Source: a virus
Length of the DNA stretch: 64,000 nucleotides
Strand: one strand, 5' to 3'
Virus record (IMG/VR): IMGVR_UViG_3300026851_000001
The translations under genes were made by a program, and so were the position numbers. This document shows positions 1-35,169 of this stretch, piece after piece; positions within the stretch are counted from its first letter, which is position 1; each line of letters opens with the position of its first letter. The notes under the pieces are model-generated. The model was not told the DNA's origin. It saw nothing but the letters and a program-made list of their open reading frames with translations, and made no database searches.

Positions 1-1
1 C

Positions 2-3102: not shown

Positions 3103-3105
3103 GTC

Positions 3106-4378: not shown

Positions 4379-4379
4379 C

Positions 4380-4799: not shown

Positions 4800-4802
4800 C
4801 CC

Positions 4803-5951: not shown

Positions 5952-5953
5952 GC

Positions 5954-9098: not shown

Positions 9099-9101
9099 AC
9101 C

Positions 9102-9695: not shown

Positions 9696-10606
9696 GGCGT
9701 ATCCCTGACGCGCTGCGCGCACACCTGCAGCAGCCTGTCACAACGACGTGTCGCCTGCTGAAAATCACGCTGGCGGACGGCCGCCAGTTCGGCATGACGA
9801 CCTTGGATCGAGCCGTGACTTACCAGGGCGTTGAGTACAGCGCAATCAACGGCATCAATACGTCGATCATCGCGACCGACACCGGGCTAAGCGTAGACAA
9901 CGCAGAGGCCACCGCTCTTCTTTCTTCCGATATTGAAGGGATCACGGTCGAGATGGCCCTGGCCGGCGATCTTGATGACGCCCAATGGGAAATGATGCTG
10001 ATCAACTGGGCCGATATCTCCATGGGCCACATGGTGATCGACGCGGGCGATATCGGCGAAGTGCGGATCGTAGACGATATGGTCTACATCCCGGAGCTGC
10101 TGAGCTTCGCAATGCGGCTGCAGCAGAGCATCGGGCATGTCTGGTCGCGCCGCTGCCGTGCGATTTTCGGGACTCCGGCGAACAGCCAGACAGGTTGCGG
10201 GGTTGATGCTGAATCCATGTGGCAGGCCGGCGAGGTAACGGGCATTGGCGATGAGCCTCAGCGGGTGTTCGCTGACTCCGGTTTATCAATGGACCCTGAG
10301 CCGGTACCTGGCCGCCTCCGCTGGCTGACTGGCCCCAACACATCCAATCGTCTGTATCAGGTCGAGGCCTACAGTGCTGTCAGCGGCACCATCGCTCTGC
10401 TTGAGCCGGTGCCGTTCCCTGTCGCCGTTGGCCACACATTCGAGATCCGCCGCGACTGTAACAAGTCGCCGAGCAACTGCATCGGCTACAGCAATCTTCT
10501 CAACTACAAGGGAGAGCCATTTATCCCGGTCGGCGATGGCCTGGAGACGATGACGCCCAGTGCGCAGGTGTTCGGGGGTCTGAGTGGATCAGCAATCGTC
10601 GATTGA
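9692..10606 (+). CDS. Baseplate hub / tail-tip protein (DUF2163, BR0599-type)
   Basis: N-terminal TTCRLLKITLADG; C-terminal DCNKS..NC..YSNLLNYKGEPFIP Cys motif. Confidence 0.85.
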   Translation: MRRIPDALRAHLQQPVTTTCRLLKITLADGRQFGMTTLDRAVTYQGVEYSAINGINTSIIATDTGLSVDNAEATALLSSDIEGITVEMALAGDLDDAQWEMMLINWADISMGHMVIDAGDIGEVRIVDDMVYIPELLSFAMRLQQSIGHVWSRRCRAIFGTPANSQTGCGVDAESMWQAGEVTGIGDEPQRVFADSGLSMDPEPVPGRLRWLTGPNTSNRLYQVEAYSAVSGTIALLEPVPFPVAVGHTFEIRRDCNKSPSNCIGYSNLLNYKGEPFIPVGDGLETMTPSAQVFGGLSGSAIVD

Positions 10607-11009
10607 TGCCTGCATTGCCGAGGCGCGCAGCTATATCGGTGTCAAGTGGCGGCACCGTGGGCGCTCAAGGTTCGGGATCGACTGCATCGGTCTGCTCGTC
10701 CGTGCGTGCGCGGCTGGTGGAATCCAGATGCGTGATCGCGTCGACTATGGCCGTGAGCCCTGGAAAGACGGCCTGGAACGCGAGATGCGAGAGCACTTTG
10801 GCGAACCAGTCAATGACCTTGCGGCCGGAGATGTGGTGCTGATGCGCTGGGACGAGCGGCCAGAGCCTTGCCACGTCGGCATCATCGGCTCAGACCAGTA
10901 CGGACTCACGCTGATTCACAGCTACAGCATGATCAGCGTGACAGAGCACGGCATTGACGACGCCTGGCGCAAACGAATCGTGATGGTGTTCAGACCATGG
11001 CACAGGTAG
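10584..11009 (+). CDS. NlpC/P60-family tail peptidase
   Basis: WRHRGRSRFGIDCIGL with HVGI and LIH catalytic motifs. Confidence 0.9.
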   Translation: MDQQSSIDACIAEARSYIGVKWRHRGRSRFGIDCIGLLVRACAAGGIQMRDRVDYGREPWKDGLEREMREHFGEPVNDLAAGDVVLMRWDERPEPCHVGIIGSDQYGLTLIHSYSMISVTEHGIDDAWRKRIVMVFRPWHR

Positions 11010-12019
11010 CGGTAGGTGTAGCCGGCGCAGTAGCCGGCTTTTTTATTGGTGGCCCTGCCGGCGCCTTCTACGGGTTCTCAGCCGGTATGGCGCTCGGAGG
11101 GATGCTGTTCTCCAAGACCAAACCGATACGCCAGACGCTCGGGCAGATCGCCAACCAGACAGCGAAGGAAGGCGACCCAAGAGTCATTGTGTGGGGCAGG
11201 GTGCGGCCCATCGGCGGGAACATCATTCACTGCCAGGCGCCGGTCAAGCGCTTTGTCACCACGTCCAGTAGCGGCGGCGGCAAGGGCGGCTCAAAGAAGA
11301 AACAGGAGACGAAGACAGAGCACGTTTATCGGACCTACGCCATTGGCGTATGCGAAGGTCCGATCACTGCATTCACGCGCATCTGGCGCAACAACAAGCT
11401 GGTCTACGACGGGCGTGGCACGTCATGGGGCGCCGCAAACAATCACGTCTTCTTGGGCAAGTTCAGGCTCTACTTGGGCGCCTGGAACCAGATGCCGGAC
11501 CCGACGCTACAGGCTATATGGGGCAGCGGTAATGTCCCGGCCTATCGCGGCACGGCATACATGGTGTCGATCGACGAAGACCTGACCGACCAGGGCGGAA
11601 TGGTGCCTCAATGGCAGTTCGAGGTAGAGCGCGCAGAGGGTAACTTTTTATCGTCGAGACCGTATTCCGCAGAACAGGAAGACTCGATGTATACGGACGG
11701 ACTTGCAATCGGAGGCGCTTACCCGCCCAGTCTCGTTGACGAAATGGTCACGGCAAGTCTTCCGCTTGATGGGGAACTCAGAAGTATTTATCAAGAATAC
11801 GCTGAATGGCAGATTGAAGAGATTAATCTATCCGGCTCGCCCTTAGACGGTATATTGACCGATGCTTTCAGGCAATATACCGACTGGCCGCTTGAGGAAA
11901 TGCAACTAGGCGGTGCCCCGCAAAATGGCAATCTCGACGTCAAGTTGATCGGATACACAGAATGGCAGATTGAAGAGATTAATCTATTCGGCTCGCCGTT
12001 AGACGGAACTTTAACTTGA
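10997..12019 (+). CDS. Tail-tip protein N-terminal part fused to 26-aa repeats
   Basis: YAIGVCEGPI and VPAYRGTAY motifs; repetitive acidic C-terminus. Confidence 0.75.
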   Translation: MAQVAVGVAGAVAGFFIGGPAGAFYGFSAGMALGGMLFSKTKPIRQTLGQIANQTAKEGDPRVIVWGRVRPIGGNIIHCQAPVKRFVTTSSSGGGKGGSKKKQETKTEHVYRTYAIGVCEGPITAFTRIWRNNKLVYDGRGTSWGAANNHVFLGKFRLYLGAWNQMPDPTLQAIWGSGNVPAYRGTAYMVSIDEDLTDQGGMVPQWQFEVERAEGNFLSSRPYSAEQEDSMYTDGLAIGGAYPPSLVDEMVTASLPLDGELRSIYQEYAEWQIEEINLSGSPLDGILTDAFRQYTDWPLEEMQLGGAPQNGNLDVKLIGYTEWQIEEINLFGSPLDGTLT

Positions 12020-12029
12020 GGTTTACATT

Positions 12030-13025
12030 ATGAATATATGGGTTCCCAAATTTAAAATTATTGAGCCGGATAGAGAGATCCCTGTTGCATCTGGCGGTTT
12101 AGCAGGTGAGTTTCAATTGACCGCCAGTGCACCAGGTAGGGCGCCGCGTAAAAGCCCATGGTTTAGTAATCTCATATTGAATAACGGTCTTGATTCTGCT
12201 GGTTCAACGCCTGCTTTACTTCAAAGGTGTGCAGTCGGCACAGGCACAACCGCGCCAAACATTGCGCAGAACTCACTGGTAAGTCAGATCGCTGTAACTT
12301 CTGACGTGCAGTCTAACGTCGTCGAAACCGAACCTACTACGCCGTATCGCATCACAAAGACTGTTAGGTACAGATTCGCTCAAGGTGCGGCAGCTGGGAA
12401 CTTGACGGAAGTAGCTGTGGGGACTAATACAGGAACCCCTATGAGCGCCTGGTCGCGCGAGCTAATCCGCGATCAGTTTGGGAACCCGATCTCATTTCCT
12501 GTTCTGGCTGACGAATTTCTAGATGTCACATATCGCATAACAGGTTATCCGCCGCTTTCTGATCTTGAGGGTACGATAAACATCAGCGGGACCCCTTACG
12601 ATTTCGTAATGCGCGCCGCACAAGTCGGTACAGTTTCGGGTAACACCGCAGGCTGGTCTTTCGCTTGGGCGACTGGTGCTCTATTTTTTGCGGGTGCCGG
12701 TCAGACTAACGCTTTTGAGTTTGTGGCCCGTGCGTCGAATATCGGGGGTATCACAGAGGCACCTATAGGAACGAGTTTTAACGCCAGTAGCTACACAAAC
12801 GGCTCATACTCGAACGGTAATTATTACCGCGACTCCGTACCGTTATGGGGTCTAAACGCAGGTAACGTGCCGGGAGGTATTCGCAGCGTCCAATGGACTA
12901 CCGGAAGGGCGTCGGCGACAAACGGGTCCAGGATGAATTTCCAGATTCAATATAATCCGCCAATTCCGAAGAACGACACGCAAATACTGACGCTCCCTAT
13001 GCGCCATACATGGGGCAGAACGTAA
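12030..13025 (+). CDS. Putative virion structural (tail) protein, AT-richer
   Basis: NLILNNGLD, AVGTGTTAP and GNLTEVAVG motifs; beta-rich. Confidence 0.7.
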   Translation: MNIWVPKFKIIEPDREIPVASGGLAGEFQLTASAPGRAPRKSPWFSNLILNNGLDSAGSTPALLQRCAVGTGTTAPNIAQNSLVSQIAVTSDVQSNVVETEPTTPYRITKTVRYRFAQGAAAGNLTEVAVGTNTGTPMSAWSRELIRDQFGNPISFPVLADEFLDVTYRITGYPPLSDLEGTINISGTPYDFVMRAAQVGTVSGNTAGWSFAWATGALFFAGAGQTNAFEFVARASNIGGITEAPIGTSFNASSYTNGSYSNGNYYRDSVPLWGLNAGNVPGGIRSVQWTTGRASATNGSRMNFQIQYNPPIPKNDTQILTLPMRHTWGRT

Positions 13026-21936: not shown

Positions 21937-22313
21937 ACCTTCCCACCCTCCGCATGGCTGGCTTTCGTGCGCTCGTAGTCGGCGGCCAACATCAGCAGGT
22001 TTCGAGTGGTCGCTTTGAATGAGCTGGTGTCCGGGTATCCATGAAACTCGTGACCCTCCGGGTAGTCTGGGAAGTCGCCGTGCCATTCCCAGGCCCAGTA
22101 GCTATGGCCAGTCCATGCAGCCCATACCGTGTAGGCGTCCTGCCCTTCACCCCAGTAATCAACGCCACCACCTACGCAGAGGCAGTGTGAGACGCTGACG
22201 CCCTGATCCCATGCAGAATCCATCTTGTCGCGGTCAACCCATGCGTCGCCGAACAATGATGGAGCGATCTCGGTCAGCCGCTTGCTCAACTTCTTCTCGA
22301 TGCGTGGCTTCAT
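21933..22313 (-). CDS. Hypothetical protein
   Basis: 126 aa; coupled. Confidence 0.65.
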   Translation of the reverse strand: MKPRIEKKLSKRLTEIAPSLFGDAWVDRDKMDSAWDQGVSVSHCLCVGGGVDYWGEGQDAYTVWAAWTGHSYWAWEWHGDFPDYPEGHEFHGYPDTSSFKATTRNLLMLAADYERTKASHAEGGKV

Positions 22314-23524
22314 GCTTCACCCCGCCCATGGCTTGCGAGAAGGGCGCGGTCGATAGCCTCACGTTTGATCTCCAGCGCCTCGTGTGAGCCATTCTCCCAC
22401 TTGCCGCTGTAGCGAACGCAGGGATGGCGTTTTTCACCCATGAATCCTTCTTCGACATAGACTTCGAAGTTGTCATGAGGCAAACGCTCGCAGATGACCT
22501 TGCGGTTCTTTTGCAGCATGAAGTTGAGACGCGCAGTGTCAGGCACGCTCACCTGATCGGACGCGGACTGCTGGGCGGAAAGGGCGGCGACGATTCGCTC
22601 GTGCTGGGCGACGGTCATTAGGCTGTGCGCCTCAAGGCTCGGATTCCCCTCGTAAATATGCGTGCGCCGGAAAATGTACCCGTGGTCTACGTGGAAGAAT
22701 CTGTAACCAACAACCTCCACCTCTTCCACAGCCGATCCAGCAGTCAGCAGGGAGGGGGCTTGTGCGTACAGAAGCGTCCCTGGCTGCATGTACTGCAGCC
22801 CCTTGTTCAGCCACTTAATCGAATTTGCAGGGTCATAGCCGGCGTATTCGATCACGGCCACCGGTTGAGCGGACGGCATTGATGGTTCGCCGAATCGAGT
22901 TTCGCCCTGCGCCTCAAGCGTCAGATGGTCGATGATCTGTTCTTGACGCCGAGCCTTCTGCTCAGCTTCCAGCGCGCGACGCTTCCAGATGGCCAGATCC
23001 TCGCGGGCGCCAACGTAGGCGTCGGCCATGTCCACCCGCTCAGCCTTGACGGTTGGGGCGGAGGCGAGCGCTCCTTGATACGCCAATTGCATGTAGGTTG
23101 GCACCACATCAGCGTCGTACCCATGAGCCGATTTGATCATCGAAGCCAGCATCTGCGGCGTAGGCTCAACCGGCACCAGCGCATACCCATCCGGCACACC
23201 CACCTGCAGGCTGGCGCCGTTCATGCGCGCTTCGATCATCTGCCAAACGATGGGATGCTCAGGCCAATCGCTCTCAACCACCACGCATTCCATGGTTGGC
23301 ATCAGCTGTGCGACTTCGTCCAGTGCCGGCTTCAGCCTGTACTGCAAGTCGTTCGGTAGGTTTGCCAGGTGCTTCCGCTTAAGGACTATGTACCGGTCTT
23401 CGCGGACGAACGCCGCCCGCTCCGCATCAATCTTGCTCTGCTCGCCCATAGCCGCGTTCTCCTGCTCCAGTTCGTCGTCTTCGAGGATTTCGATAGCGCG
23501 CCCTGCGTCCAATTCGTTGGTCAT
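22310..23524 (-). CDS. Hypothetical mosaic early protein
   Basis: 404 aa with EDRYIVLKRK...CVVVESDWPE and YALVPVEPT segments common in lambdoid early genes. Confidence 0.7.
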   Translation of the reverse strand: MTNELDAGRAIEILEDDELEQENAAMGEQSKIDAERAAFVREDRYIVLKRKHLANLPNDLQYRLKPALDEVAQLMPTMECVVVESDWPEHPIVWQMIEARMNGASLQVGVPDGYALVPVEPTPQMLASMIKSAHGYDADVVPTYMQLAYQGALASAPTVKAERVDMADAYVGAREDLAIWKRRALEAEQKARRQEQIIDHLTLEAQGETRFGEPSMPSAQPVAVIEYAGYDPANSIKWLNKGLQYMQPGTLLYAQAPSLLTAGSAVEEVEVVGYRFFHVDHGYIFRRTHIYEGNPSLEAHSLMTVAQHERIVAALSAQQSASDQVSVPDTARLNFMLQKNRKVICERLPHDNFEVYVEEGFMGEKRHPCVRYSGKWENGSHEALEIKREAIDRALLASHGRGEA

Positions 23525-23748
23525 GGCTGCTTACTCCTGTTATTCGCCAGAAACTTGGTGATGGTCTGGCTCAGCTGTTGGGCGCCGATGCTGTTGCAGC
23601 GGCTGACGTAGGGTTTGGCCTGTTCAAGCAGGGCCATGGCTTCGGCGTAGAACCGCGCAGCGTTTGCTTGGGCTTGGTAGTGGGATAGGGTGTCTGGCAC
23701 CTGAGCATTGATCCTGCGCACCGTGGCGCTCTGTTCCATGCCGTTCAT
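23521..23748 (-). CDS. Hypothetical protein
   Basis: ATGA overlaps at both ends. Confidence 0.55.
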   Translation of the reverse strand: MNGMEQSATVRRINAQVPDTLSHYQAQANAARFYAEAMALLEQAKPYVSRCNSIGAQQLSQTITKFLANNRSKQP

Positions 23749-23921
23749 GGCAGTAGCTCCATATCCCTGTCGTTGAAACCTGCGCACCACAGGCAGCGCT
23801 CGAACAGTCGAGCAATTCCAAATGGGCACGATGAATACGGCGCGCCGGCTTCCCGCGCCTTTCTGCCGGCGCGGTAATGCGCCGAGTTCTCCGGAAATCC
23901 GGGATCGGTGTAGTTGGTCAC
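23745..23921 (-). CDS. Rmf/CrpP-fold-like small protein, 58 aa (absent from ORF track)
   Basis: GGAG SD with GTG start; MTNYTDPGFPENSAHYRAGRKAREAGAPYSSCPFGIARLFERCLWCAGFNDRDMELLP. Confidence 0.6.
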   Translation of the reverse strand: MTNYTDPGFPENSAHYRAGRKAREAGAPYSSCPFGIARLFERCLWCAGFNDRDMELLP

Positions 23922-24024
23922 GGGAAACTCCAGGCGGCGGGCGCCGCTGGTTAGCTAGAGGGCGGTTTGCAGCGCAGACACCCACACGGCACGGGCGCCC
24001 AGGATGTGCGGCAGTAGATGGTCA

Positions 24025-24213
24025 TTACGCAGCCCCGGCCATGGCCAGGTCGTCGTCGATATCGCTGATGTGCTGCCGCAGGTTGGCGATGGTGTTCTCT
24101 GCGCGCTTGCGGGTTACGGCGTCCATCTTGTTCAGCTTCATCTTGAGAATGCGGATGCTGTTGGTCAGGTGGGTGCGCTCGCTGCGCAGTTCTTCAGTGG
24201 TCATGAAGGCCAT
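24025..24213 (-). CDS. Hypothetical helical protein
   Basis: 62 aa amphipathic helices, downstream of ssb. Confidence 0.6.
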   Translation of the reverse strand: MAFMTTEELRSERTHLTNSIRILKMKLNKMDAVTRKRAENTIANLRQHISDIDDDLAMAGAA

Positions 24214-24223: not shown

Positions 24224-24688
24224 TCAGAACGGGATATCGTCATCAAAGCTGTCGTAGTCAGGCGCAGGTTGCTGGCTCTGTTGTGGCTGCGGCGTCTGGG
24301 CAGGCCGGCTCTGCTGTGAGTTACGCGCCGCCTGTTGCTGGCCTTCTGGCTTGCCGCCCAGCAGCTGCATGGTGCCGCGCATGTCCACGATGATTTCCGT
24401 GGTGTAGCGCTTGATGCCATCCTTCTCCCATTCGCGGGTCTGGAGCTTGCCTTCGATGTAGACCTGAGATCCTTTGCGCAGGTACTCGCCGGCTATTTCG
24501 GCGACCTTGCCGAACAGGCAGACGCGGTGCCATTCGGTCTTCTCGACCTTCTGGCCGGACTGCTTATCGGTCCAGTTCTCACTGGTGGCCACGCTGATGT
24601 TGGTGACTGCGTTGCCGTTCGGCAGGTGGCGCGTTTCCGGGTCCTGTCCGCAGGTACCTACGATGATGACCTTGTTAATGCCTTTCAT
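24224..24688 (-). CDS. ssb: Single-stranded DNA-binding protein
   Basis: [19 protein letters not shown] and acidic DDDIPF tail. Confidence 0.97.
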
Positions 24689-24801
24689 GCTGTTCTCTCC
24701 GAATTAGTAGGCCCTGATCGCCGCGGCGGGCCAGTCCAGCTCGTTATCCGGCGCGGCTCCAAGCTTTGCCGGTGGCGCCCCGTGTCGTGGTGGCGGGGTT
24801 C

Positions 24802-25419
24802 TTAGGCGGCGAGCACCTTTTCCATGCGCGCCTCCATGATTTCGTGGAAGGTCTTGACCTTGGTTGCCAGCTTGCGGATATACGGCTCGTCCCTGTATTC
24901 GCGGACAAGGCAAAGCGGCATGCCTGGCCAGTGGGCGAGAAAGTCGATCCACTCCAGCTCGCCGACCCATAGGCCGCCCTGGCATTGCGCCTTGTGCTCC
25001 TTGGGCACTGAGTTATCCAGAATCGCCTGTATCAGCTTCTCCGGGATCTTGGTCTTGACCTCAATCGCGCCGCCATCCGGCAGGCCGTCTGGGGAATAGC
25101 CAATGCCGTGGTTCAGGATGATTCCGACCTGCTCGATAGATTCGGGGGCGATATCTCGGCGCAGGCAGTACAGCTGTCGCACCTTTGGCTCCAAGGCGTG
25201 GCCGCGCTCGCTTGACTTGTTGCCGCGCCATGGCTCGGCCTCAGCGCCGGTGATGCGCTCGCCTATCAGGCGGTCCATGTAGGTGAACGCGCCGACTCCA
25301 AAGCCGCCTTCGCCCTTGCCGTCGACCATTAGCACGTCCAGCTCGGAACAGGTCACGATTCCGAGTCTCAATTTCAGCCATGCTTCGGACCCTTGTTCGA
25401 TTTCCCGAATGATCTGCAT
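24802..25419 (-). CDS. YqaJ/lambda-type exonuclease
   Basis: QGSEAWLKLRLG, SPDGL, IEVK and QCQGGLW motifs. Confidence 0.9.
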   Translation of the reverse strand: MQIIREIEQGSEAWLKLRLGIVTCSELDVLMVDGKGEGGFGVGAFTYMDRLIGERITGAEAEPWRGNKSSERGHALEPKVRQLYCLRRDIAPESIEQVGIILNHGIGYSPDGLPDGGAIEVKTKIPEKLIQAILDNSVPKEHKAQCQGGLWVGELEWIDFLAHWPGMPLCLVREYRDEPYIRKLATKVKTFHEIMEARMEKVLAA

Positions 25420-25422
25420 GGG

Positions 25423-26151
25423 TCACCCCGCTTGGTTCTGGTCTGCAGACTTCTTGAGCATCGCCAGCACGCGGTCGAAGTCATCCTTGGTTACCTGCTC
25501 GGGCGTGCCGTGGATGGAAGCGAAAGCCGTTTGCGCCTTCTCGCTGCACTTTTCCAGCAACGACTTCAGCTGCTTGGCCTGGGCGTCAGTGATCGGGGAA
25601 GGAGCTACTGCGGCGAACGCATCGTCATCTTCGCCGTGGGTAGTGAAGTTGAGCAGTGCGCCCGCCGTGTAGCGCTTGCCGTAGCTGACAGAGCTGGCAA
25701 CGGCCTGGACGGCGTTCTTGTTGCCGCTGGTATCTGCTGGAAGCAGGATCGATGTGCGCTCACTGTGGCCGGCGCGGTGGCTCAGGACGCCTTCTACCTC
25801 GACGCCTTTGTCGTTGCGGGGGATGCGGAAGGACAGGGCAAACCCATGCTTGGCCAGGATCGGTTTCAGCGCCTCGTTGATGTCTTCCCACAGCGCGTAG
25901 GTGTATCGGTTGGCGGCGTCGCCACGCTCGGCGATGGAGGGCAATTCCTGCTGCATGGCGGCCAGTGCTTCGGCGTACTGCTGCTCAGCCTGGCGCGACT
26001 GGAAGCGCTCATGCATCTGCATCAGGCGCTCCATCTTCTCGATGTCGCACTGCGGGTCAGCCGCTGCGCGCTGGATGACCTGCAGGATGGTTGCCGATTC
26101 GGCTTGGGCGACTACCGCCGATTCTTGGCGTTCTGCGATTGCTGTGCTCAT
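25423..26151 (-). CDS. erf: ERF-family ssDNA annealing protein
   Basis: QAVASSVSYGKRYTAGALLNFTTHGEDDDA. Confidence 0.9.
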   Translation of the reverse strand: MSTAIAERQESAVVAQAESATILQVIQRAAADPQCDIEKMERLMQMHERFQSRQAEQQYAEALAAMQQELPSIAERGDAANRYTYALWEDINEALKPILAKHGFALSFRIPRNDKGVEVEGVLSHRAGHSERTSILLPADTSGNKNAVQAVASSVSYGKRYTAGALLNFTTHGEDDDAFAAVAPSPITDAQAKQLKSLLEKCSEKAQTAFASIHGTPEQVTKDDFDRVLAMLKKSADQNQAG

Positions 26152-26158: not shown

Positions 26159-27223
26159 TCAGTAGCTGATGTGGATGTGCGGAATGCAGCGCTTGGCGAT
26201 CAGGGTGATTGCCTGCTTGGCGCATTCCTCGGGCATGCCACCGGCAATGAGCGCTGCCAGGGCTTCGTTGTTGATGGCTTTCTGGTGGGCCTTGTTGGCT
26301 TCGCGGGCGGCGGCTTCACGCTCAATGCGGGCTTGCTCGTCGGCTTGGCGCTGACGTTCGGCTGCTGCGGCTGCATCGGCTCGGGCCTGGGCGTCACGCT
26401 CTGCCTGCTCGGCGCGCTGCTTGGCTTCCACGGCTTCGCGTTCGGCACGCTCGGCGGCCAGCTTCAGCTCCAGTTCACGGCGCTCGGCTGCGGCCTTGGC
26501 CTCTGCTTCACGGCGGGCGGCTGCGTCGCGTTCTTCCTGGGCGCGGCGTTCGGCTGCCAGGCGCTCGGCCTCGGCTGCTTCGCGGGCAATGCGCTCCTCG
26601 CGCTCTTTCTGCTCGCGTGCTGCGGCCTCAGCGCGCAGGCGCTCCAGTTCGGCCTGCTCGGCTTCGTACTGCTGACGCTTGGCCAGAGCTTCGCGCAGGG
26701 TTGCCAGCGATGCAGACTTGATGCGGTGCGCCTCGGCTTCGAACTCTTCCCAGGCCTCGCCGATAGTGATTTCCTCCAGATTGTCGATCTGCACCTGAAT
26801 GCCAGCGGCGGTCAGGCCGTCTACCACCACGAAGTCGCGCAGTTGTTGAACGCGTGACTCCAGCATTTCGACCCGCGCCTTCTCAGCCTCTTCCCACTCC
26901 GTCAGCGGCCGGCGAACTTCGTCCTGCCAGGAATCAAGCAGATCGCGCATGCGCTTGCGCTCGGCGTCGATCTTCTTCGGGACTTCCTTCAGCTCGGCGA
27001 CCAGTTCCTTGCCTACGTTGTCCAGGGCCGTCTTGGAGCGGGCGACCTTGTAGGCGATGGAAGCGATTGCCTCGCGCCCCTTGCGGGTGCTCACGTCAGG
27101 CGTGAAGCCGTCGATCTCTTCGCGGATCTTGGCCAGGAACGGGTCAAGGCCATTGGCAGCCGAGTAGACCTGCAGGGCGGTTTCTTTCGGCGGCAGTGCG
27201 ACGATTTGGTTATCTGCGGACAT
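26159..27223 (-). CDS. Long coiled-coil protein of the recombination module
   Basis: KGREAIASIAYKVARSKT; Ala/Glu/Arg-rich C-terminal half. Confidence 0.8.
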   Translation of the reverse strand: MSADNQIVALPPKETALQVYSAANGLDPFLAKIREEIDGFTPDVSTRKGREAIASIAYKVARSKTALDNVGKELVAELKEVPKKIDAERKRMRDLLDSWQDEVRRPLTEWEEAEKARVEMLESRVQQLRDFVVVDGLTAAGIQVQIDNLEEITIGEAWEEFEAEAHRIKSASLATLREALAKRQQYEAEQAELERLRAEAAAREQKEREERIAREAAEAERLAAERRAQEERDAAARREAEAKAAAERRELELKLAAERAEREAVEAKQRAEQAERDAQARADAAAAAERQRQADEQARIEREAAAREANKAHQKAINNEALAALIAGGMPEECAKQAITLIAKRCIPHIHISY

Positions 27224-27274
27224 AGCTTCGCCCTCCAGGGCGCTGGTGATGTTGGGGGAGAGGGTGGTGCTGGC

Positions 27275-27520
27275 TTACTTGCGGTTGGCTTCTTTCGAGA
27301 AGTACCGGTGCCAGATATCGGGATGATCGGCGCGCATCATGTCTACGCGCCGTTGCAGGACGCTCAATGCCGTGCGCTGGGCGTCACGGATAAGCGGCTT
27401 GCTCTCATGCATCAGTCGCTGACTGATCCACTGTTCTTGAGTTGCGCACTTGATGCGCAGCTTTCGGAGTTCTTCGCGCTCGTCGGCTGACAGCGGAAGA
27501 AGGTTTGATAGGAATCCCAT
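27275..27520 (-). CDS. Hypothetical protein
   Basis: GGAG SD; 81 aa. Confidence 0.6.
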   Translation of the reverse strand: MGFLSNLLPLSADEREELRKLRIKCATQEQWISQRLMHESKPLIRDAQRTALSVLQRRVDMMRADHPDIWHRYFSKEANRK

Positions 27521-27667
27521 TGGCGACTCCAGTGTTGTGATGTGAATAGGGTGGCGATGGCAGCTCGCTACGCTGCGTGGTCGGAAAACGGCCTACTGAG
27601 GTGTCAATCAGACCAGCTTCAGCCGCCCGCTTCGCTAGAAGCCCTGCATCCCCGTAAACGGCGCCGG

Positions 27668-27925
27668 CTAGTCTTGCGGGGGAGTGATTGGCTTCCAGTG
27701 AGTGGTTACCGGGCGCTCTACGTGGCCAGGGCCGTCAGCGCACGTCTCAATGTGCTGGCAGGAGTCTTCGGCGATGATCCAAAATCCGCCGTCTTCGTTT
27801 CCTTCGTCTTGCTCCCATCTGTCGAAGTCGGCTGCGAACTGATCCCAGCCGTTCCACTTTCGCCAGACCAGCACTTCCGCATTGGTTTCGGGCATCCGCT
27901 CGCTACATTTGATCCAGTTATCCAT
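27668..27925 (-). CDS. DUF551-like protein
   Basis: WIKCSERMPE...VTTHWKPI. Confidence 0.75.
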   Translation of the reverse strand: MDNWIKCSERMPETNAEVLVWRKWNGWDQFAADFDRWEQDEGNEDGGFWIIAEDSCQHIETCADGPGHVERPVTTHWKPITPPQD

Positions 27926-27928
27926 GAT

Positions 27929-28045
27929 CTACCCCGCAATCCGATCAACAGCGCTCAATGCGCCGATGAGTACAGTGAAGAAACAGATACCGGAGAATGC
28001 GCCGCGATAGATTGCGCAGCGTAGGGCGCGTTGGCGGCGGGTCAT
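27929..28045 (-). CDS. Small membrane protein, 38 aa (MTRRQRALRCAIYRG...)
   Basis: ATGA coupling; basic N-terminus plus TM. Confidence 0.5.
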   Translation of the reverse strand: MTRRQRALRCAIYRGAFSGICFFTVLIGALSAVDRIAG

Positions 28046-28371
28046 GGCATGGACTCCCCGATAGCCGCTGCGTCGCGAACAATGGCGCGGCGCGTTGCTG
28101 CCATCATGTCGTCGCCGTGACGTTCGACAGTTGTCACTCGATTGTCGTTAACCCACGAGCTGACATAGGTAGACTTGGCTTGGCCGTGCAATATTCCTAC
28201 CTTCAATCCAAGTACTGCCGCCAGCCGCAGCGCGTCACCATCATCAGCGAGAGGATTCCAAACGCGCTGGCCCACTCCACGCTCCGAGCGCAGCGCATTG
28301 CCGCTAGGGCTCCATTTGATGGCGTAGCCAGCCGCCTTAGCCGCCAGCTCCAGCAATTCACGGTCGTTCAT
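28042..28371 (-). CDS. Hypothetical protein
   Basis: MNDRELLELAAKAAG...WNPLADDGDALRLA. Confidence 0.7.
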   Translation of the reverse strand: MNDRELLELAAKAAGYAIKWSPSGNALRSERGVGQRVWNPLADDGDALRLAAVLGLKVGILHGQAKSTYVSSWVNDNRVTTVERHGDDMMAATRRAIVRDAAAIGESMP

Positions 28372-28490
28372 CAGCTCACCACCTCGGCCACAGCCGACGC
28401 AAATACATAGATAGACCCAAGGAAGCAGGCCACAAAAAAGCCCGCTTTGATCATCTCGGCGGGCTTCGGTAAGCGGGGGGTTATGGTCAT
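28371..28490 (-). CDS. Small membrane protein, 39 aa
   Basis: Fills the gap between coupled genes; one TM. Confidence 0.45.
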   Translation of the reverse strand: MTITPRLPKPAEMIKAGFFVACFLGSIYVFASAVAEVVS

Positions 28491-28879
28491 GGCTTGCGCT
28501 CCATGGCGGCACGAATATCTTCCAGCGTCCATGGGCCAAGTTTATCGGCATCGAATGCATGTCCTGCCGCCCATCGATCTAGACAAGCATTAGCCTGCGA
28601 GCAGAGATTATGCAGAGCCTCAACCGACAGTAGCGCCTCCCGCGTCAAGTCGCTGCCAGCAGGCAGGCCCAGCGCGTGGCCGATCTGGTGAAGGGCTTCG
28701 CCCTGGGCGCACAGCTGGTCGCGCTCGGTTTCAGCAGCGCGCAGGCGGGCGATAAGGCCACGCAGTTCTCCCATGGTCTGCGGTGAGTTGGCGTCATCCT
28801 TGAACATCGGCATGCGGAAGAACTCTTCCAGCTCCGCCAACTGCTCATCACTGATGCTGGGTACGATTGGGGTGGTCAT
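28487..28879 (-). CDS. Ead/Ea22-like protein
   Basis: ISDEQLAELE...LIARLRAAE. Confidence 0.65.
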   Translation of the reverse strand: MTTPIVPSISDEQLAELEEFFRMPMFKDDANSPQTMGELRGLIARLRAAETERDQLCAQGEALHQIGHALGLPAGSDLTREALLSVEALHNLCSQANACLDRWAAGHAFDADKLGPWTLEDIRAAMERKP

Positions 28880-28888
28880 GGCGTCACC

Positions 28889-29095
28889 TCACATACGATG
28901 CCAGGTTTGATAATCAGCCTCTGTCATTCGTCCAGAGTCTTGCATGCTAGATTCGTATTGCATCAGCTCATCTTTGTGCGCCGCGCATGCGTGCTTTGTG
29001 ATTACCGTATGCTGGCTTTGCCATTCAGCCTTTACTGTTCTTTCCGGGCAGAATTTGCACCACGGCTGGTGGTGTTTTTTGTTTATGCGCTTCAT
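28889..29095 (-). CDS. Hypothetical protein
   Basis: WCKFC...HAC; coupled. Confidence 0.55.
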   Translation of the reverse strand: MKRINKKHHQPWCKFCPERTVKAEWQSQHTVITKHACAAHKDELMQYESSMQDSGRMTEADYQTWHRM

Positions 29096-29319
29096 CCCGC
29101 CATCCTCCCAATCCGCTGCGCATCCAGTTGGCGCTGGCGTTGTTTATTTGCGCAGTGTCGAGCCAGGCTGACCAACGAATCACGCACACCTTCGCAATAC
29201 TGCCGCTGTCGGTGACCATCGTTGATGTAGCTGATCACTGCGCCTAGTTCGATCATCGGCGCGGGGCTAAATCGTAGCTGGCGTATCGCCTCGCGCGCCT
29301 GGCGTTCGTGGGCGGTCAT
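29092..29319 (-). CDS. Hypothetical protein
   Basis: Coupled in operon. Confidence 0.55.
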   Translation of the reverse strand: MTAHERQAREAIRQLRFSPAPMIELGAVISYINDGHRQRQYCEGVRDSLVSLARHCANKQRQRQLDAQRIGRMAG

Positions 29320-29567
29320 TTATCTCTGGCCTCAAGCATGGCGTCGGCCATTTGGTAAGATGTTTTTGCCAGCCCATCTAGCGAATCCCAATAAGATGGA
29401 TGCATACCAGAAAATCCCAGGCCGTTCCCTGCGATAATTCCCTGCATTGCCTTCGCTGCGAAGTAGTCGCGCAGGGTCATTCCATCAAACTCTGCGTGAT
29501 GCTTGTACATCTCGCCGGGCTGAAGAGTTACCGGAAACGCCGGCCCGCCAGTTTTCTTGTCAGTCAT
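29316..29567 (-). CDS. Conserved phage protein (GGPAFP...GMTLRDYFAAKAMQ family)
   Basis: Characteristic motif. Confidence 0.8.
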   Translation of the reverse strand: MTDKKTGGPAFPVTLQPGEMYKHHAEFDGMTLRDYFAAKAMQGIIAGNGLGFSGMHPSYWDSLDGLAKTSYQMADAMLEARDK

Positions 29568-29908
29568 GCTTGGCTCCTTGCCTTGGCGATGGCTGCGCGG
29601 GCTTTCTTCATGCAGGCTCCATCGTGGAACTCGCCAGCATCAGACTTTTCTACCATCCATTCCAGCGCCTCCAGCAGCTCGGCATTGAGGGCCTTCATGC
29701 TTATCATCTGATACCCGACGGCACTAACCAGTCCTGTTTGCTCAAGGTCTTCGGTTGACAGCCCTTGACACGCATTAACGCAAGCAGCAATGCGTCTGGC
29801 GTTAGCTTCAGGATTCGGGCAGCCACTAAGATCAAATCCCCCGAGTACTCTTGGAAAATAGACAGCCGATCCGCGCGCAGCCCATCCTTCTTTCGTGTGC
29901 TCACTCAT
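29564..29908 (-). CDS. Hypothetical protein
   Basis: ANARRIAACVNACQG motif. Confidence 0.7.
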   Translation of the reverse strand: MSEHTKEGWAARGSAVYFPRVLGGFDLSGCPNPEANARRIAACVNACQGLSTEDLEQTGLVSAVGYQMISMKALNAELLEALEWMVEKSDAGEFHDGACMKKARAAIAKARSQA

Positions 29909-30287
29909 AGTCATCCTCTCCCCGCGATTCCGCATACGCCTGAGCCAGCGGCCTAACCAGGCCCTCAGCCATCTTGCGAGCGTCGTCTTTACTGACCAGC
30001 AGCCGAAGGGCGCCGGATGCTTTGTCGATATCGCCGGCCAGTACGTTGCGCAGAACTTGGCCAAGCGCGCCGTCGTAGTCGTGGCCGTCGTTGTATTTGG
30101 CTGCTACGTGCTCGGCCATGGCGTCTTCAAGCTGCTTGACCTGTTCCTCAACGCGCTTGCCTGCGACATACAGCGTGTCTTCGATCAGGTCATCTACTGC
30201 GCCGGCAAGCCAGTTTTTGCCCTCGGCGGTATCAAGGAACTGGTCAGGCTGGAGGTGGAACATGGGTTGGCGTAGGGCTGCGCTCAT
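29901..30287 (-). CDS. Hypothetical protein
   Basis: 128 aa; coupled. Confidence 0.65.
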   Translation of the reverse strand: MSAALRQPMFHLQPDQFLDTAEGKNWLAGAVDDLIEDTLYVAGKRVEEQVKQLEDAMAEHVAAKYNDGHDYDGALGQVLRNVLAGDIDKASGALRLLVSKDDARKMAEGLVRPLAQAYAESRGEDDYE

Positions 30288-30571
30288 GAGGCACCTCGGG
30301 CTTTGGCGATGGCGGCGCGGGCGCCTTCCAAGTAGTGACGCGCAGGCTTGTTTTCTTTTGCGGTGAGCACGATCAATTCCAGCATTTCAAGAAGATCGGG
30401 CGCGGCCGCAATAAGAGCCATGTTTGCTGCGTCTTTCTCGTCGCAGTAGCGAGCTGGCCACATACCTTCAAATTGCGCGTAATCCAAAACAGCGCCTGTT
30501 GCCGAGTTCAGGCATGAGCGCCCAGGCTCTCCAAGCCAGACCCATGGGCCTGGCGTATGTTTTTCGGACAT
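30284..30571 (-). CDS. Conserved phage protein (HTPGPW...ANMALIAAAPDLLE)
   Basis: Characteristic motif. Confidence 0.75.
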   Translation of the reverse strand: MSEKHTPGPWVWLGEPGRSCLNSATGAVLDYAQFEGMWPARYCDEKDAANMALIAAAPDLLEMLELIVLTAKENKPARHYLEGARAAIAKARGAS

Positions 30572-30607
30572 GATCAATCCTCGCTATGTGTGCGTGGAGA
30601 GGGGGAA

Positions 30608-30683
30608 TGGGGCAACGAACGGGACTCGAACCCGTGACCTATCGGTTATGAGCCGACTGCTCTACCTGCTGAGCTACCGTTGC
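30608..30683 (-). tRNA. tRNA with CAT anticodon (Met or Ile2), 76 nt
   Basis: GCAACGG/TCGTTGC acceptor, GCTC/GAGC D-stem, CTCATAA loop, TTCGAGT T-loop, encoded CCA. Confidence 0.85.
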
Positions 30684-30742
30684 AAAAAGGCCGCGGGGAG
30701 CGGCAATAGGGTGGTGCGGTAGAGGGTATTGGTGGTGCGACC

Positions 30743-30815
30743 TGGGAGCCTGGCGGGACTCGAACCCGCTATTCCTCCCTCTCGGGTAGACGCTCATCCA
30801 TTGGCGTTCAGGCTT
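30743..30815 (-). ncRNA. Degenerate tRNA-like element
   Basis: Perfect T-arm GCGGG-TTCGAGT-CCCGC and AGCCTG/CAGGCT acceptor, but the anticodon arm is broken. Confidence 0.55.
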
Positions 30816-30855
30816 TTCACTGCGTCCAGTGCAGGACGCACCCCAATACCCTCTT

Positions 30856-30991
30856 CAGATGACATCGGTTGATGGATGGCCGGTGCTAAGTCTCTTGGCT
30901 AGGCCATGGGTCAGGCGGCAGACATGCTGCGCACTCGCTACCCTTTGCGATGGATTGCTCCACGGTCAGCATCCATCACCGATGCCATCTG
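30856..30991 (-). ncRNA. Candidate multi-branch structured RNA
   Basis: About 22-bp closing stem with one G-U and one bulge; internal TGGA-GCAA-TCCA hairpin. Confidence 0.45.
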
Positions 30992-31013
30992 CCCTGCTAG
31001 GCAGGGCGGCGGG

Positions 31014-31397
31014 TTATGTGCCGTAGTCGATTGCAACAATTTTTTCGCTGTACCAGCCGAACGAATTTGCTTTGTGCTCTGCGGGGATCGAGTAATCAGG
31101 GCGTTCGCAAAAGGCCTCGACGTCAAACGCAAGAAACTCGTCGTCTGTAAGTACTCTTGCCCGTCGCATAACAACCATCCAGCCGCCAGGAATCGACCAA
31201 ACAACAGGGCAAAGCCCAGGGAGATTCGCGGCTGAAAGACTCGCCTCCTGCATGTTGGCGAGAAGACCGCACAGGAATAGCTTCCAACTCCAAAGCGCCG
31301 GAACCTTTATGGCGAATCTGCCAGCGAGGATTACATGTCTTGTCGCGCCTTCATTGTTGATGCTTATCCTGCGCAATGCGGCTGCAGCCGTGCTCAT
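31014..31397 (-). CDS. Minimal protein-kinase-like fold protein (putative)
   Basis: GATRHV..FAIKVP, VVMRRA, EHKANSFG and IVAIDYG in kinase motif order. Confidence 0.6.
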   Translation of the reverse strand: MSTAAAALRRISINNEGATRHVILAGRFAIKVPALWSWKLFLCGLLANMQEASLSAANLPGLCPVVWSIPGGWMVVMRRARVLTDDEFLAFDVEAFCERPDYSIPAEHKANSFGWYSEKIVAIDYGT

Positions 31398-31454
31398 CTC
31401 TATCTCCTATTGCCCTACGGCGTTAGATGGTTGTTTCCATTTTGGAAATAACCA

Positions 31455-31694
31455 CTAACGCCTTGGATTTATTACTGCTGCAGGGTGAGCCATAAGGCGA
31501 TCCAGCGTTACGCCGTTCAGCAACCTATCGAGCCCAGCTAGCCTCCCCTGCAATGTTGATTTGTGGTCAATTTTCAGCATTGAAGGGCCAGCATCTATGC
31601 GAGCCGAGTAGTCGCCATCCACAAAAAATAGAGCGCAATACTCGGTAGATTTTGTTAGCCCCTTGTAAATTTCGATTCGCGTAATTTGCGGCAT
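31455..31694 (-). CDS. Hypothetical protein, AT-richer, flanked by a 14-bp direct repeat
   Basis: SD AGGAGG; 79 aa. Confidence 0.6.
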   Translation of the reverse strand: MPQITRIEIYKGLTKSTEYCALFFVDGDYSARIDAGPSMLKIDHKSTLQGRLAGLDRLLNGVTLDRLMAHPAAVINPRR

Positions 31695-31761
31695 CCCTAC
31701 CTCCTATTGCCCTAAGTCGTTAATCACCGATGCGAACCCTAAGCGCGCATGGGTGAAAGTG

Positions 31762-32304
31762 TCAGTAAGGTTTCTCAACCTTGCCCTGGTCTTGCAGGCT
31801 TTTGACGTTGAACAAGCCAGCTAGCATCTGATCCATCTGCTGCGCCAGCTGATTGCGCAGTCCATCTTTCAGGGCGCCGGTAACGTTCGCGGTGTGTTGC
31901 AGCATCTGTTTGCTAAAGTCTTCTGCGCAGATTTTTGTCATCAGCCACTGCGCACGGGTTACGGCGTTGTAATCGCTCGTCGCTTTTTCGCCGTTGGAAG
32001 GGTTTACCTTCGCTGTCCAGTAGGCGGATACGGTTTTTTCCAGCTCTTTACGAAGGGTGGTAGACGGCCCTTCTTGATCGCCCCACTGATTCACTCGGCG
32101 ATATTCGCGCTCGAACGATCCGTTAATGGTCTCGTCGATGGCTTTCTGAATCTGGCTGGTGACGCGCTCGTCAAAGATCTTGTCAATGCGCTTCTTTACC
32201 TCGCTGTTAACCAGGCTCGACAGGTCGGCGTCTTCGCTCAGCAACTGGTCTGCAACCTGGGCTACGATTGCGGTTTTCAGCGATTCTTCATTGATGTTCA
32301 GCAT
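31762..32304 (-). CDS. Hypothetical helical protein, first gene of the pL operon
   Basis: 180 aa; AGGA SD. Confidence 0.75.
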   Translation of the reverse strand: MLNINEESLKTAIVAQVADQLLSEDADLSSLVNSEVKKRIDKIFDERVTSQIQKAIDETINGSFEREYRRVNQWGDQEGPSTTLRKELEKTVSAYWTAKVNPSNGEKATSDYNAVTRAQWLMTKICAEDFSKQMLQHTANVTGALKDGLRNQLAQQMDQMLAGLFNVKSLQDQGKVEKPY

Positions 32305-32626
32305 TTCCTAACACTCCTGGGTTTGTTTGACTTCCCTGATGCCACTCTTGCGAATGGCATCGAGGAAATCTGTCTTGCTCGCCCCGCGCAGCTACTGGCT
32401 TCTTGCGGGGCTCTATCGATGTCTCACAGTCCACGGCTCTGCCCGACTGCACTCTTGTTCATCCAGGCTCTACGCTGCGCCTGGCCGGGCGAGGCAGGAT
32501 CTCTGATCCATTTTCCCGGTGGGTCGATTTGGGCTCGACCTCGCTAAACCCCTTCTTGCTCTGGCCGGTATCGATCCGGCAGTTCGAGCTGGCTTTCGCC
32601 GGGCCAGTTGTGGCTGGCTTGGGTTC

Positions 32627-32668
32627 AATATAGGCATGCCTGTTTTTATCGTCAACAGGAAATCCTAT
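32627..32668 (-). promoter_or_regulatory. pL promoter with OL operators
   Basis: TTGACG-17-TATATT (32655 to 32627); ATAGGCATGCCTGT at 32630 and ACAGGAAATCCTAT at 32655. Confidence 0.75.
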
Positions 32669-32717
32669 ATTTCGATTTGTGCAAATTAATTTGGTGTGCA
32701 AATTTTCAGTCGAGCAC

Positions 32718-32741
32718 AAGAAAGCCCGCGCTAGGCGGGCT
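32718..32741 (-). terminator. Terminator of the cI operon
   Basis: GCCCGC-CTAGC-GCGGGC-TTTCTT. Confidence 0.7.
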
Positions 32742-32762
32742 CTGTTTGCGTAATGGGTGAGG

Positions 32763-33350
32763 CTATTGGCTCATGATCTGCCGGTAGCGTCGCTGGTACT
32801 CTTCGTAGGAAAGGCCGGCTTCGGATTGAAGCTGCTTGATCTGATGCGCGCGCCACTGCTCGCGCGTCATCTCTCTATTGGCGACGGGTTGATGAACTGG
32901 CTCTGATTCAGACGTTTGCTTGGTGTAACGGAAAGGTGGTCGACCTGTGGCGCTTATACCAGGATCGCCGCTTGCGTTGCGAAAACCGCGAAACTGGTAA
33001 GCCATGCCAGGCTCTAGAGTCACCGACAGTTCCTGCAGGCTTCCCGAGCAAATAGACCCCATCTGAACGCCAATGATTGCGGGACCAGGACGCACATAGA
33101 AGGTGGCCGTTTCTGATATTCCAACAGAAGCAGCCTTTGTGCCGTTGATCATGAATCCGAAGTCACAAGCAGCCCCGGAGAAACCAGCGTCACGCGTAAA
33201 AGTCACCCTGGCGTCATCTGAACTACTTTGTTTCTGAAATGCATAGACTGATGATGCTGGGACTGCATTCGCTTGCTCAGGCGTGATAGCAGATGTAGAG
33301 CAGGCAGAAAGCATTGCGGCAGATAGTAGGGCCAACGAAATCTTGGTCAT
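32763..33350 (-). CDS. Lipoprotein moron in the cI operon
   Basis: MTKISLALLSAAMLSAC lipobox. Confidence 0.8.
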   Translation of the reverse strand: MTKISLALLSAAMLSACSTSAITPEQANAVPASSVYAFQKQSSSDDARVTFTRDAGFSGAACDFGFMINGTKAASVGISETATFYVRPGPAIIGVQMGSICSGSLQELSVTLEPGMAYQFRGFRNASGDPGISATGRPPFRYTKQTSESEPVHQPVANREMTREQWRAHQIKQLQSEAGLSYEEYQRRYRQIMSQ

Positions 33351-33358
33351 TTTCTTGC

Positions 33359-33859
33359 TCACTTTGTCGCGCACTCCTGATTCCAGGTGCTTTCGAAGTC
33401 GGCTGTTTCGCCTTCTAGCCAAGTCAGGTCGGCGCTGAGCGAGATGAACGCCTTTTCACCGGTATAGCCGCCAAACGAGTTTTTGGCATTCACGTACCCG
33501 CACACCATTCCAGAGTCTTTGGCGACGACCTGGCCGAACCTTGCCGATTCTGGATCTTTGAGCTTGGCCTTTACGAAGTCTTTTGCGCGAGCGACTGCGA
33601 TGACTTTCCGTTGTTCGGCTTCCCTGGCTTTTCTGGAAGCCTCTTCTGCAGCTCGCTTTTCGACCGCGACTTCAGGGCTTACTGGCTGCGTGCCAGTCCT
33701 GGGCGCAGTCATTGAGCCGATTACGCCTAGACCGATGATTATCAGGACACCCCAAGTAACGACGCTGGTTTTCTTTGGCGGTTTAGCTCCGCAGTTCGGG
33801 CACGCTTTGGCGGTCGCAGCAATCCTGCTCCCGCATTCCTTGCACTTAACCAGAGCCAT
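33359..33859 (-). CDS. Zinc-ribbon membrane protein moron in the cI operon
   Basis: CKECG...CPNCG, one TM, and a KDPESA...VCGYVNAKNSFGGYTG domain. Confidence 0.8.
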   Translation of the reverse strand: MALVKCKECGSRIAATAKACPNCGAKPPKKTSVVTWGVLIIIGLGVIGSMTAPRTGTQPVSPEVAVEKRAAEEASRKAREAEQRKVIAVARAKDFVKAKLKDPESARFGQVVAKDSGMVCGYVNAKNSFGGYTGEKAFISLSADLTWLEGETADFESTWNQECATK

Positions 33860-33874
33860 GGTCTCTCCCTCTTT

Positions 33875-34621
33875 TCAGAGGCCGCCTTTCCCGCTCTTGT
33901 CCCGCACGCGGCCGATTATGGTGATGTGTTCCTGAGCGACATCGGCGGCGATGTCTTCAATGGGGTAGGCCTGGTTATCGCTGACCAGGCGAAGGCTGCC
34001 GTCCAGCTTCTTGAACAGCCGCTTGATGCGTAGATCGTTGCCGTAGCGCAGAGCGTAGACCTTGCCGTCGATGATCTTGGCCGGCTCGTTTTCTTCCATG
34101 TTGACCAGCACAGAATCGCCGTCGAATAGCGTCGTCTCCATGCTGTCGCCCTTAACCCTGAAGCGCTTGCACTTCTCGGGCTTAATGCGCTCGGCACGGA
34201 ACCACGAAAGCTTGTAAATCGCCGGGTCCGATTCCTCAATGATCTCGTACAGCGCCTGGTGTCCATTTCCGGCTGAGAAGTTCACTTGATACTCGCTTAT
34301 GGCAACGGCATCTTCTGGCAGTTGGTCTTCTGGGTCGTAGGCCTGGACGTTTCCAGAGCCTGCCGGCTCGAAGCCCTTCATTTCTTTGTTATGAACGGCC
34401 AGCTCAAGGCGAACCGGAATCATGGGGCCGGTGCCGTTCTCCAGCCATATAGCGCTCACGCCGCAGTTCTTGGCGATGCTGGCGTTGTATGAGGAGGAGG
34501 CAGATTTTCCCCTCTCCAGATCGGAGATTGAGGTCTGAGTTATCCCCACGCGCTGAGCCAGCTCTAGCTGGGAAAGCTTGGCGTGCTTGCGTGCTTGCTT
34601 CAATCGGTCTTTGTATTCCAT
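33875..34621 (-). CDS. cI: CI-like repressor (HTH plus S24 peptidase)
   Basis: LSQLELAQRVGITQTSISDLERG HTH; VKGDSM and IKRL catalytic motifs. Confidence 0.95.
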   Translation of the reverse strand: MEYKDRLKQARKHAKLSQLELAQRVGITQTSISDLERGKSASSSYNASIAKNCGVSAIWLENGTGPMIPVRLELAVHNKEMKGFEPAGSGNVQAYDPEDQLPEDAVAISEYQVNFSAGNGHQALYEIIEESDPAIYKLSWFRAERIKPEKCKRFRVKGDSMETTLFDGDSVLVNMEENEPAKIIDGKVYALRYGNDLRIKRLFKKLDGSLRLVSDNQAYPIEDIAADVAQEHITIIGRVRDKSGKGGL

Positions 34622-34633
34622 CCCCCGATTCTC

Positions 34634-34695
34634 AAAGGTTTCCCTATGTGCTTGCAAACAGGATTCCCTATGTCTAAGATCATAGGAAATCCTAT
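34634..34695. promoter_or_regulatory. OR operators (three at 24-bp period) and pR
   Basis: AAAGGTTTCCCTAT at 34634, ACAGGATTCCCTAT at 34658, ATAGGAAATCCTAT at 34682; pR TTGCAA-17-TAAGAT. Confidence 0.8.
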
Positions 34696-34708
34696 GGAGG
34701 ATTGAGGA

Positions 34709-34912
34709 ATGACGACTTACGAGCGCCTTGTCGCGCACTTCAAAAGCCAAGAGAACACCGCCACGGCCCTTGGCGTTAAGCAGGGGACCGTCTCCGGCTG
34801 GATCACTGGCAAGCATGGCATGAGCGCCGTCACGGCACTTCGAGCCGAGCGCGTCACAGGCGGCGCCTTCAAGGCACATGAACTGTGCCCTGCGCTGCTT
34901 GCTGTCGCTTAG
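34709..34912 (+). CDS. cro: Cro-like repressor
   Basis: 67-aa HTH (QENTATALGVKQGTVSGW), divergent from cI. Confidence 0.9.
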   Translation: MTTYERLVAHFKSQENTATALGVKQGTVSGWITGKHGMSAVTALRAERVTGGAFKAHELCPALLAVA

Positions 34913-35108
34913 CAGCCAGCGACGTTACCACCTGATCAAACCCGTCCTGCCTAGCGCCACGCTGGCACGGGCGGACGAGTAAGCAGGCGGATTCCAGCTT
35001 AGCCCGGAACCGCAACTGAGATTGAAGAGGCTGCAGCTCCATGAGCGCAGCGATGTGGCAGCGAAGGGCAAGCAGTTCGCCCTGGAGAGTTTCGATGGTC
35101 GGTTGCAT
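34869..35108 (-). CDS. Counter-oriented hypothetical protein
   Basis: Amphipathic helices (LQGELLALRCHIAAL); overlaps the cro 3' end. Confidence 0.4.
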   Translation of the reverse strand: MQPTIETLQGELLALRCHIAALMELQPLQSQLRFRAKLESACLLVRPCQRGARQDGFDQVVTSLAAKRQQAAQGTVHVP

Positions 35109-35169
35109 GGGTTTTCACCTGTCGGCTGATCGGGTGATTACAGGTTATGGCCGGGGAGGCCAACGAGAA

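Follow-up and report, generated by a model that had tools for sequence, protein, structure and literature searches.

The 58-residue open reading frame at 23745..23921 on the minus strand of the window (the whole 64,000-nt stretch of DNA analysed here) is a real, translated gene of a phage early-left operon, and its product is genuinely, if distantly, related to ribosome modulation factor (RMF). The protein stands alone as a hairpin of two helices and belongs to the Rmf/CrpP-fold superfamily; compared residue by residue, it has lost the rRNA-binding signature of RMF: the basic N-terminal extension and all five contacting Arg/Lys residues are gone. Its most fitting place is among the catalogued, functionally uncharacterised phage "Rmf/CrpP fold" proteins, of which it is a divergent example, and on balance we favor for it the role of an adaptor whose partner is probably non-ribosomal.

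Genome and Operon Context

The window holds a single genome of 51,728 bp written past its end: bases 1-12272 are identical to 51729-64000 and, since the genome wraps in this manner, window features above 51728 are duplicates. Its GC content is 59.4% and its mosaic matches are lambdoid temperate Pseudomonas phages, e.g., D3, JBD44, and Ab31; it is the genome of a lambdoid Pseudomonas temperate phage of about 51.7 kb.

The ORF list and the sequence place the GTG start of the 58-residue frame at 23921-23919 and its TGA stop at 23747-23745 (minus strand). No start codon stands between the upstream stop and this GTG, and the frame offers no alternative to it. A Shine-Dalgarno-like GGAG (23928..23931, minus strand) is read in the sequence 6 nt 5' of the GTG, and the stop overlaps the ATG (23748-23746) of a downstream 75-residue ORF (23521..23748, minus strand) in an ATGA (23745..23748, minus strand) of the type associated with translational coupling. 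The frame, its GTG start, the Shine-Dalgarno site, and the ATGA coupling had all been pointed out in an earlier reading made without database searches (the sequence-only reading), and each of them is confirmed here. The 75-residue ORF, a weak match to PHROG 16171 (E 1.8e-5), is in turn joined by a second ATGA (23524-23521) to a 404-residue ORF (22310..23524, minus strand) that matches only PHROGs of unknown function.

Upstream of the gene, beyond a spacer of about 100 nt in which a search found no promoter-like or terminator-like site, lies a 62-residue ORF (24025..24213), followed by a recombination module (24224..26151) that encodes SSB (24224-24688; PHROG 44, E 5e-59), a YqaJ-type exonuclease (24802-25419; PHROG 149, E 8e-32), and an Erf-like annealing protein (25423-26151; PHROG 155, E 3e-54), all on the minus strand and in the same leftward operon. 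With SSB, the exonuclease, and the Erf-like protein upstream on the same strand, the Rmf-like gene is assigned to the distal part of the early-left (recombination) operon, which bears out the earlier suggestion of an early phage protein. Phages BUCT566 and Ab31 display the order seen in the window, namely recombinase, exonuclease, SSB, a hypothetical protein, and then the Rmf-like gene. A conserved gene pair, formed by the Rmf-like gene and the coupled 75-residue ORF, was considered and rejected: the 75-residue ORF shows no similarity to the ORF found at the same position in BUCT566. Since phages differ in the ORF that is coupled downstream, the Rmf-like gene moves as a single cassette. PADLOC, applied to the gene and three neighbors (the 404-residue ORF included), gave no defence-system match.

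Conservation of the Gene

Pseudomonas phage records, 23 in all, contain homologues with 46-50% identity, and the operon position matches in both of those inspected (BUCT566 and Ab31). In most of the 23 the homologue bears the annotation "hypothetical protein"; three leave it without any feature. PHROG 10492 matches the protein with E 7.1e-14 and 52.7 bits, residues 9-57 aligning with profile positions 8-56 of 61. An exhaustive HMMER search yielded 25 representatives and a profile search 115 proteins, the clade amounting to 128 in total. A scan for related loci with the single protein returned one locus, a prophage of Pseudomonas sp. P818, whose copy is 93% identical. Six synonymous codon changes (positions 33, 35, 38, 39, 47, and 56) and five non-synonymous ones (2, 25, 30, 57, and 58) separate the window from this copy, none of the latter at clade-signature positions. 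When profile A1, built from a 26-sequence alignment, was run against 61 genomes of the genus of P818, two were matched; we read the gene as sporadic in the genus, with the caution that a count of 2/61 does not prove absence.

It is scarcely credible that the 58-residue frame arose by chance in GC-rich DNA and that the true coding sequence is instead the overlapping 154-residue ORF listed at 23521..23985. This longer ORF does exist and corresponds to the frame of the 75-residue ORF extended upstream from the first GTG, but its upstream part has no family match and its downstream 75 residues begin at the ATGA-coupled ATG, while the 58-residue frame has a conserved family and a confident fold. 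Conservation at the family level effectively refutes the chance-ORF reading.

Sequence Relationship to RMF

The pattern in which the sequence-only reading had recognized a likeness to Rmf, AHYRAGRKAREAG....CPF.....ER..W..GF, is present exactly, and the resemblance goes beyond chance. Taken alone, the protein matches Pfam RMF (PF04957) with E 0.0022 and a score of 18.4 bits, which is below the gathering score of 27.9. The homologue profile A1, run against 177,635 PDB sequences, retrieves the RMF entries 2jrm (E 1.4e-8), 4v8g (4.8e-8), and 6h4n (7.2e-8), and apart from RMF chains it finds no PDB sequence below E 0.9; phmmer with the single window sequence gives no match in the PDB. The comparison with the RMF family HMM that had been proposed as a check gives a divided answer: the single sequence stays below the curated cut-off, and 25 of the 26 homologues match at E<=0.01. 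At the same threshold, 22 homologues match Rmf_CrpP_fam, 20 match PRK14563 RMF, and 18 match Rmf_like_phage. For the window protein itself the best-scoring NCBIfam model is NF041887 Rmf_like_phage (22.1 bits vs a cut-off of 40), and NF041886 Rmf_CrpP_fam is likewise sub-threshold (16.6 bits vs 28). Its nearest neighbors in the protein Atlas are RMF and CrpP clusters.

The core common with RMF comprises an aromatic-xx-G-xx-A motif in helix 1, a C-P-aromatic linker, and R-xx-W-L-A-G-W in helix 2. Residues C32, P33, F34, W45, G48, and F49 are present in the window protein, which deviates from the clade consensus at Y29 (for K/R), C46 (for L), F49 (for W), and N50 (for H). A zinc site formed by C32, C43, and C46 was also considered and rejected, Cys occurring at C43 in 25 of 128 members and at C46 in one of 128, and the match to a dCMP-deaminase zinc region having E 0.12.

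A second RMF-family paralogue, of 63 residues, was observed on the P818 chromosome (L005:1474-1665, minus strand), between argA-like and gshA-like genes. It scores 53 bits, above the Pfam cut-off, has a net charge of -5, and lacks the linker Cys.

Predicted Fold

The AlphaFold2 model of the protein (pLDDT 87.7) is a hairpin with helices at residues 14-24 and 36-56. Among 48,161 representative PDB chains, the top structural match is ribosome-bound RMF, chain 4v8g_AV, with Z 6.2 and an rmsd of 2.3 Å over 49/53 residues, against Z 4.9 for the runner-up; for a helical hairpin a Z of about 6 is a modest value, to be given weight only alongside the sequence evidence. Structure prediction, the other computational check that had been suggested, also leads to RMF. 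Foldseek against the PDB gives weak rows only, with RMF at E 8.7, and it took the wide VIA search to rank RMF first; BFVD contains many phage look-alikes, several of them automatically named "Ribosome modulation factor".

rRNA-Binding Residues and Charge

Helix 1 of RMF is inserted between h28 and h37/h40 in the 100S structure from E. coli, where Arg3, Lys5, Arg8, Arg11, and Arg15 are hydrogen-bonded to the 16S rRNA backbone (Beckert et al., bioRxiv 10.1101/382572). The N-terminal extension of RMF is intertwined with S7, Arg37 contacts domain 4 of S1, and elements of the linker and helix 2 hold the 16S 3' end (bioRxiv 10.1101/382572). Equivalent positions were counted from the invariant Gly, which is G16 in RMF and G19 in the window protein.

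At the positions of R3, K5, R8, R11, and R15 the window protein carries D, G, E, A, and A, so that none of the five is basic, vs four of five in two genuine chromosomal RMFs (L004, the P818 rmf that adjoins pyrD, and L011). Among 127 clade members, 75 have no basic residue at these positions, 41 have one, and 11 have two, the number never exceeding two; the Arg8 equivalent is Glu in 59 members. The net charge of the window protein is 0 (pI 6.5) vs +5/+6 for the genuine RMFs, and that of the N-terminal 13 residues is -2 vs +3, with a core charge of +3 in both cases. The clade (n = 128) has in turn its own conserved residues that are absent from RMF, namely R23 (108 members), H50 (104), D51 (126), D53 (116), E55 (85), and E11 (59), with M54 likewise conserved, and thus its own acidic D-x-D-x-E tail. 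Because the hairpin puts the N-terminal segment beside the end of helix 2, E11, D51, D53, and E55 would, in the model, form an acidic patch where RMF is basic. R42 of the window protein aligns with RMF R37, in a column occupied by R in 92 and by K in 12 of the 128 members, and helix 1 bears other basic residues (R17, R20, K21, and R23).

Since basic rRNA-binding residues and a curated family score were both looked for, and the contact positions proved non-basic and the score below the cut-off, the window protein is not RMF proper. Its residues further suggest that it does not bind ribosomes, although RNA or ribosomes might conceivably be bound in some other way, because helix 1 has those other basic residues and the core charge equals that of RMF.

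Compared with the RMF of Gammaproteobacteria (PF04957; NF011162; PDB 4V8G, 6H4N/6H58, 2JRM), the window protein is alike in size, in its two-helix hairpin, in the shared core motifs (aromatic-xx-G, the C-P-aromatic linker, and R-xx-W-L-x-G-W), and in an acidic residue after the GW. It differs in its score below the Pfam cut-off, in its missing basic extension, contact residues, and net positive charge, in the R23 and D-x-D-x-E tail of its clade, and in its location in a phage early operon, rmf being chromosomal and adjoining pyrD.

Phage Proteins of the Same Fold

Closer counterparts are the phage "Rmf/CrpP fold protein" families (NF041887, NF041886, and PHROG 10492; "Ribosome modulation factor" in UniProt), which are likewise short proteins with this fold, encoded on their own by phages or prophages. 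The window protein departs from them in lying under both NCBIfam cut-offs and off the consensus at Y29, C46, F49, and N50. The literature searched contains no functional work on Rmf-like proteins of phages. Rmf-fold phage proteins are common and are often automatically labeled "ribosome modulation factor"; for the clade of Pseudomonas temperate phages considered here, the residue-level evidence indicates that this label over-reaches. Finding the true partner would account for an early accessory gene that is widespread, and could be relevant to how phages deal with stationary-phase or biofilm hosts.

Possible Functions

The loss of the basic extension and of the five Arg/Lys residues, together with the acidic patch, most likely means that the protein does not serve in ribosome hibernation as RMF does, by binding 30S and driving 90S/100S dimer formation. 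The explanation towards which we lean, with somewhat more than even confidence in it as a whole, is that of an Rmf/CrpP-fold adaptor with a partner that is probably non-ribosomal: a small accessory protein that would bind a host or phage protein through the acidic, aromatic-rich end of its hairpin, during early infection or induction. The analysis shows that the gene is real, that it is homologous to RMF and has its fold, and that the rRNA-binding signature is lost; the adaptor function and the class of target are inferred. Three clade members are fused to an N-terminal HTH, P0007 to HTH_38, P0103 to HTH_11, and P0126 to a GcrA N-terminal domain (below cut-off), with the motif WWLAGWHDxD kept in each. 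These apparent fusions, which amount to 3 of 128 clade members and derive from short metagenome contigs, point towards partners in the DNA-binding or transcription machinery. A search for fused forms of 280-2000 residues found none, which is weak evidence.

A precedent for action through a protein partner is available in Pseudomonas itself. Published work on P. aeruginosa reports that ribosome hibernation does not depend on its Rmf (PA3049/BatR) and that this protein acts via the kinase SrkA (PMC13411936, PMC13503843); neither deletion nor overexpression of rmf reproduces any of the E. coli phenotypes, and ribosomes are preserved by HPF rather than RMF (PMC13503843). PA3049 has been renamed BatR, with reported binding to SrkA, a kinase that controls pyocin-mediated lysis and Pf4 activation (PMC13411936). 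The reported binding shows that Pseudomonas has an Rmf-fold protein able to work by way of another protein.

The sequence-only reading had proposed that the protein mimics or competes with host Rmf. Such a protein would dock on the RMF site of the 30S subunit or close to it, either blocking Shine-Dalgarno pairing and thereby silencing host translation, or filling the site without silencing, so that ribosomes stay awake in stationary-phase hosts. True homology and a common fold with RMF speak for this proposal, as do the retention of R42 (the equivalent of RMF R37, the contact to S1 domain 4), of the C-P-aromatic linker, and of W-L-A-G-W, the RMF-like core charge, and the early-operon position. 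The residues and the charge of the protein nevertheless do not support it: the five rRNA-contacting basic residues are all replaced, one of them by Glu, and their loss is clade-wide; the extension that intertwines with S7 in RMF is neutral or acidic here; and the end that in RMF is pushed in towards the rRNA carries a conserved acidic D-x-D-x-E here. The idea of a competitor is weakened further by reports that P. aeruginosa can do without Rmf in ribosome hibernation: with no hibernation phenotype reported for the host protein, there would be little to compete with. We therefore regard docking at the RMF site as unlikely, though it keeps a real share of the probability.

A small chance is given to the idea that the phage clade is a functional Rmf derivative that acts in a new way, on the translation apparatus or on the BatR/SrkA stress pathway. 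In an anti-hibernation variant, the retained helix-2/linker surface would bind S1/S7 or the 16S 3' end, with the acidic end repelling rRNA; in the alternative variant, SrkA-controlled lysis would be hijacked. If either were true, the clade would give phages a widely distributed means of infecting Pseudomonas cells that lie dormant.

Direct mimicry of BatR, in which the phage protein would bind SrkA or another Ser/Thr kinase and tune SrkA-controlled lysis, pyocin, or prophage activation for the benefit of the phage, is quite improbable. The two proteins have the core fold and the likely host genus in common, and the reported role of BatR is non-ribosomal and protein-binding. However, BatR is basic, keeps the RMF N-terminus (4/5 basic in the P818 orthologue), and is distinguished by an extra C-terminal helix (PMC13411936), which according to the alignment is absent from the phage protein. 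In addition, the interface confidence of the published AlphaFold3 model is low, 0.27 (PMC13411936), and no sequence feature ties the window protein to SrkA.

A small-molecule (fluoroquinolone) modifying enzyme of the CrpP type has next to no probability. No such enzyme activity was reportedly found by Zubyk and Wright in 2021. The CrpP family (NCBIfam NF033696) resembles the window protein in superfamily label, small size, and carriage on mobile elements; the protein gives weak matches to Rmf_CrpP_fam and to CrpP_rel_fam (14.1 bits), and one Atlas neighbor cluster is named "CrpP family protein". Both matches nonetheless fall far under their cut-offs (35 bits for CrpP_rel_fam), the CrpP_fam model has no match to the window protein even at E<=10 (4 of 26 relatives do match it), the gene resides in a phage and not in an ICE, tblastn of the protein against plasmids gives no match, and a 58-residue helical hairpin has no plausible kinase site. 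The link of crpP-like genes to resistance is itself disputed (PMC7918633).

Other Features of the Genome

The PHROGs of unknown function that match the 404-residue ORF (22310-23524, minus strand) are scattered across several families, which suggests a mosaic protein. Patches of about 90% identity with Leptolyngbya phage Lbo-JY16 and Plectonema phage Lbo240-yong2 were observed against 27000-39886 of the window; the patches include the replicative helicase and NinB, among others. Such likeness to a Pseudomonas-type phage is odd for cyanophages, whose true host may be a different one. ARAGORN detects three phage tRNA genes in the window: tRNA-Met(CAT) in the early-left region (30608-30683, minus strand), and a pair formed by tRNA-Thr(TGT) and tRNA-Asn(GTT) at 44910-44985 and 44989-45063 (plus strand).
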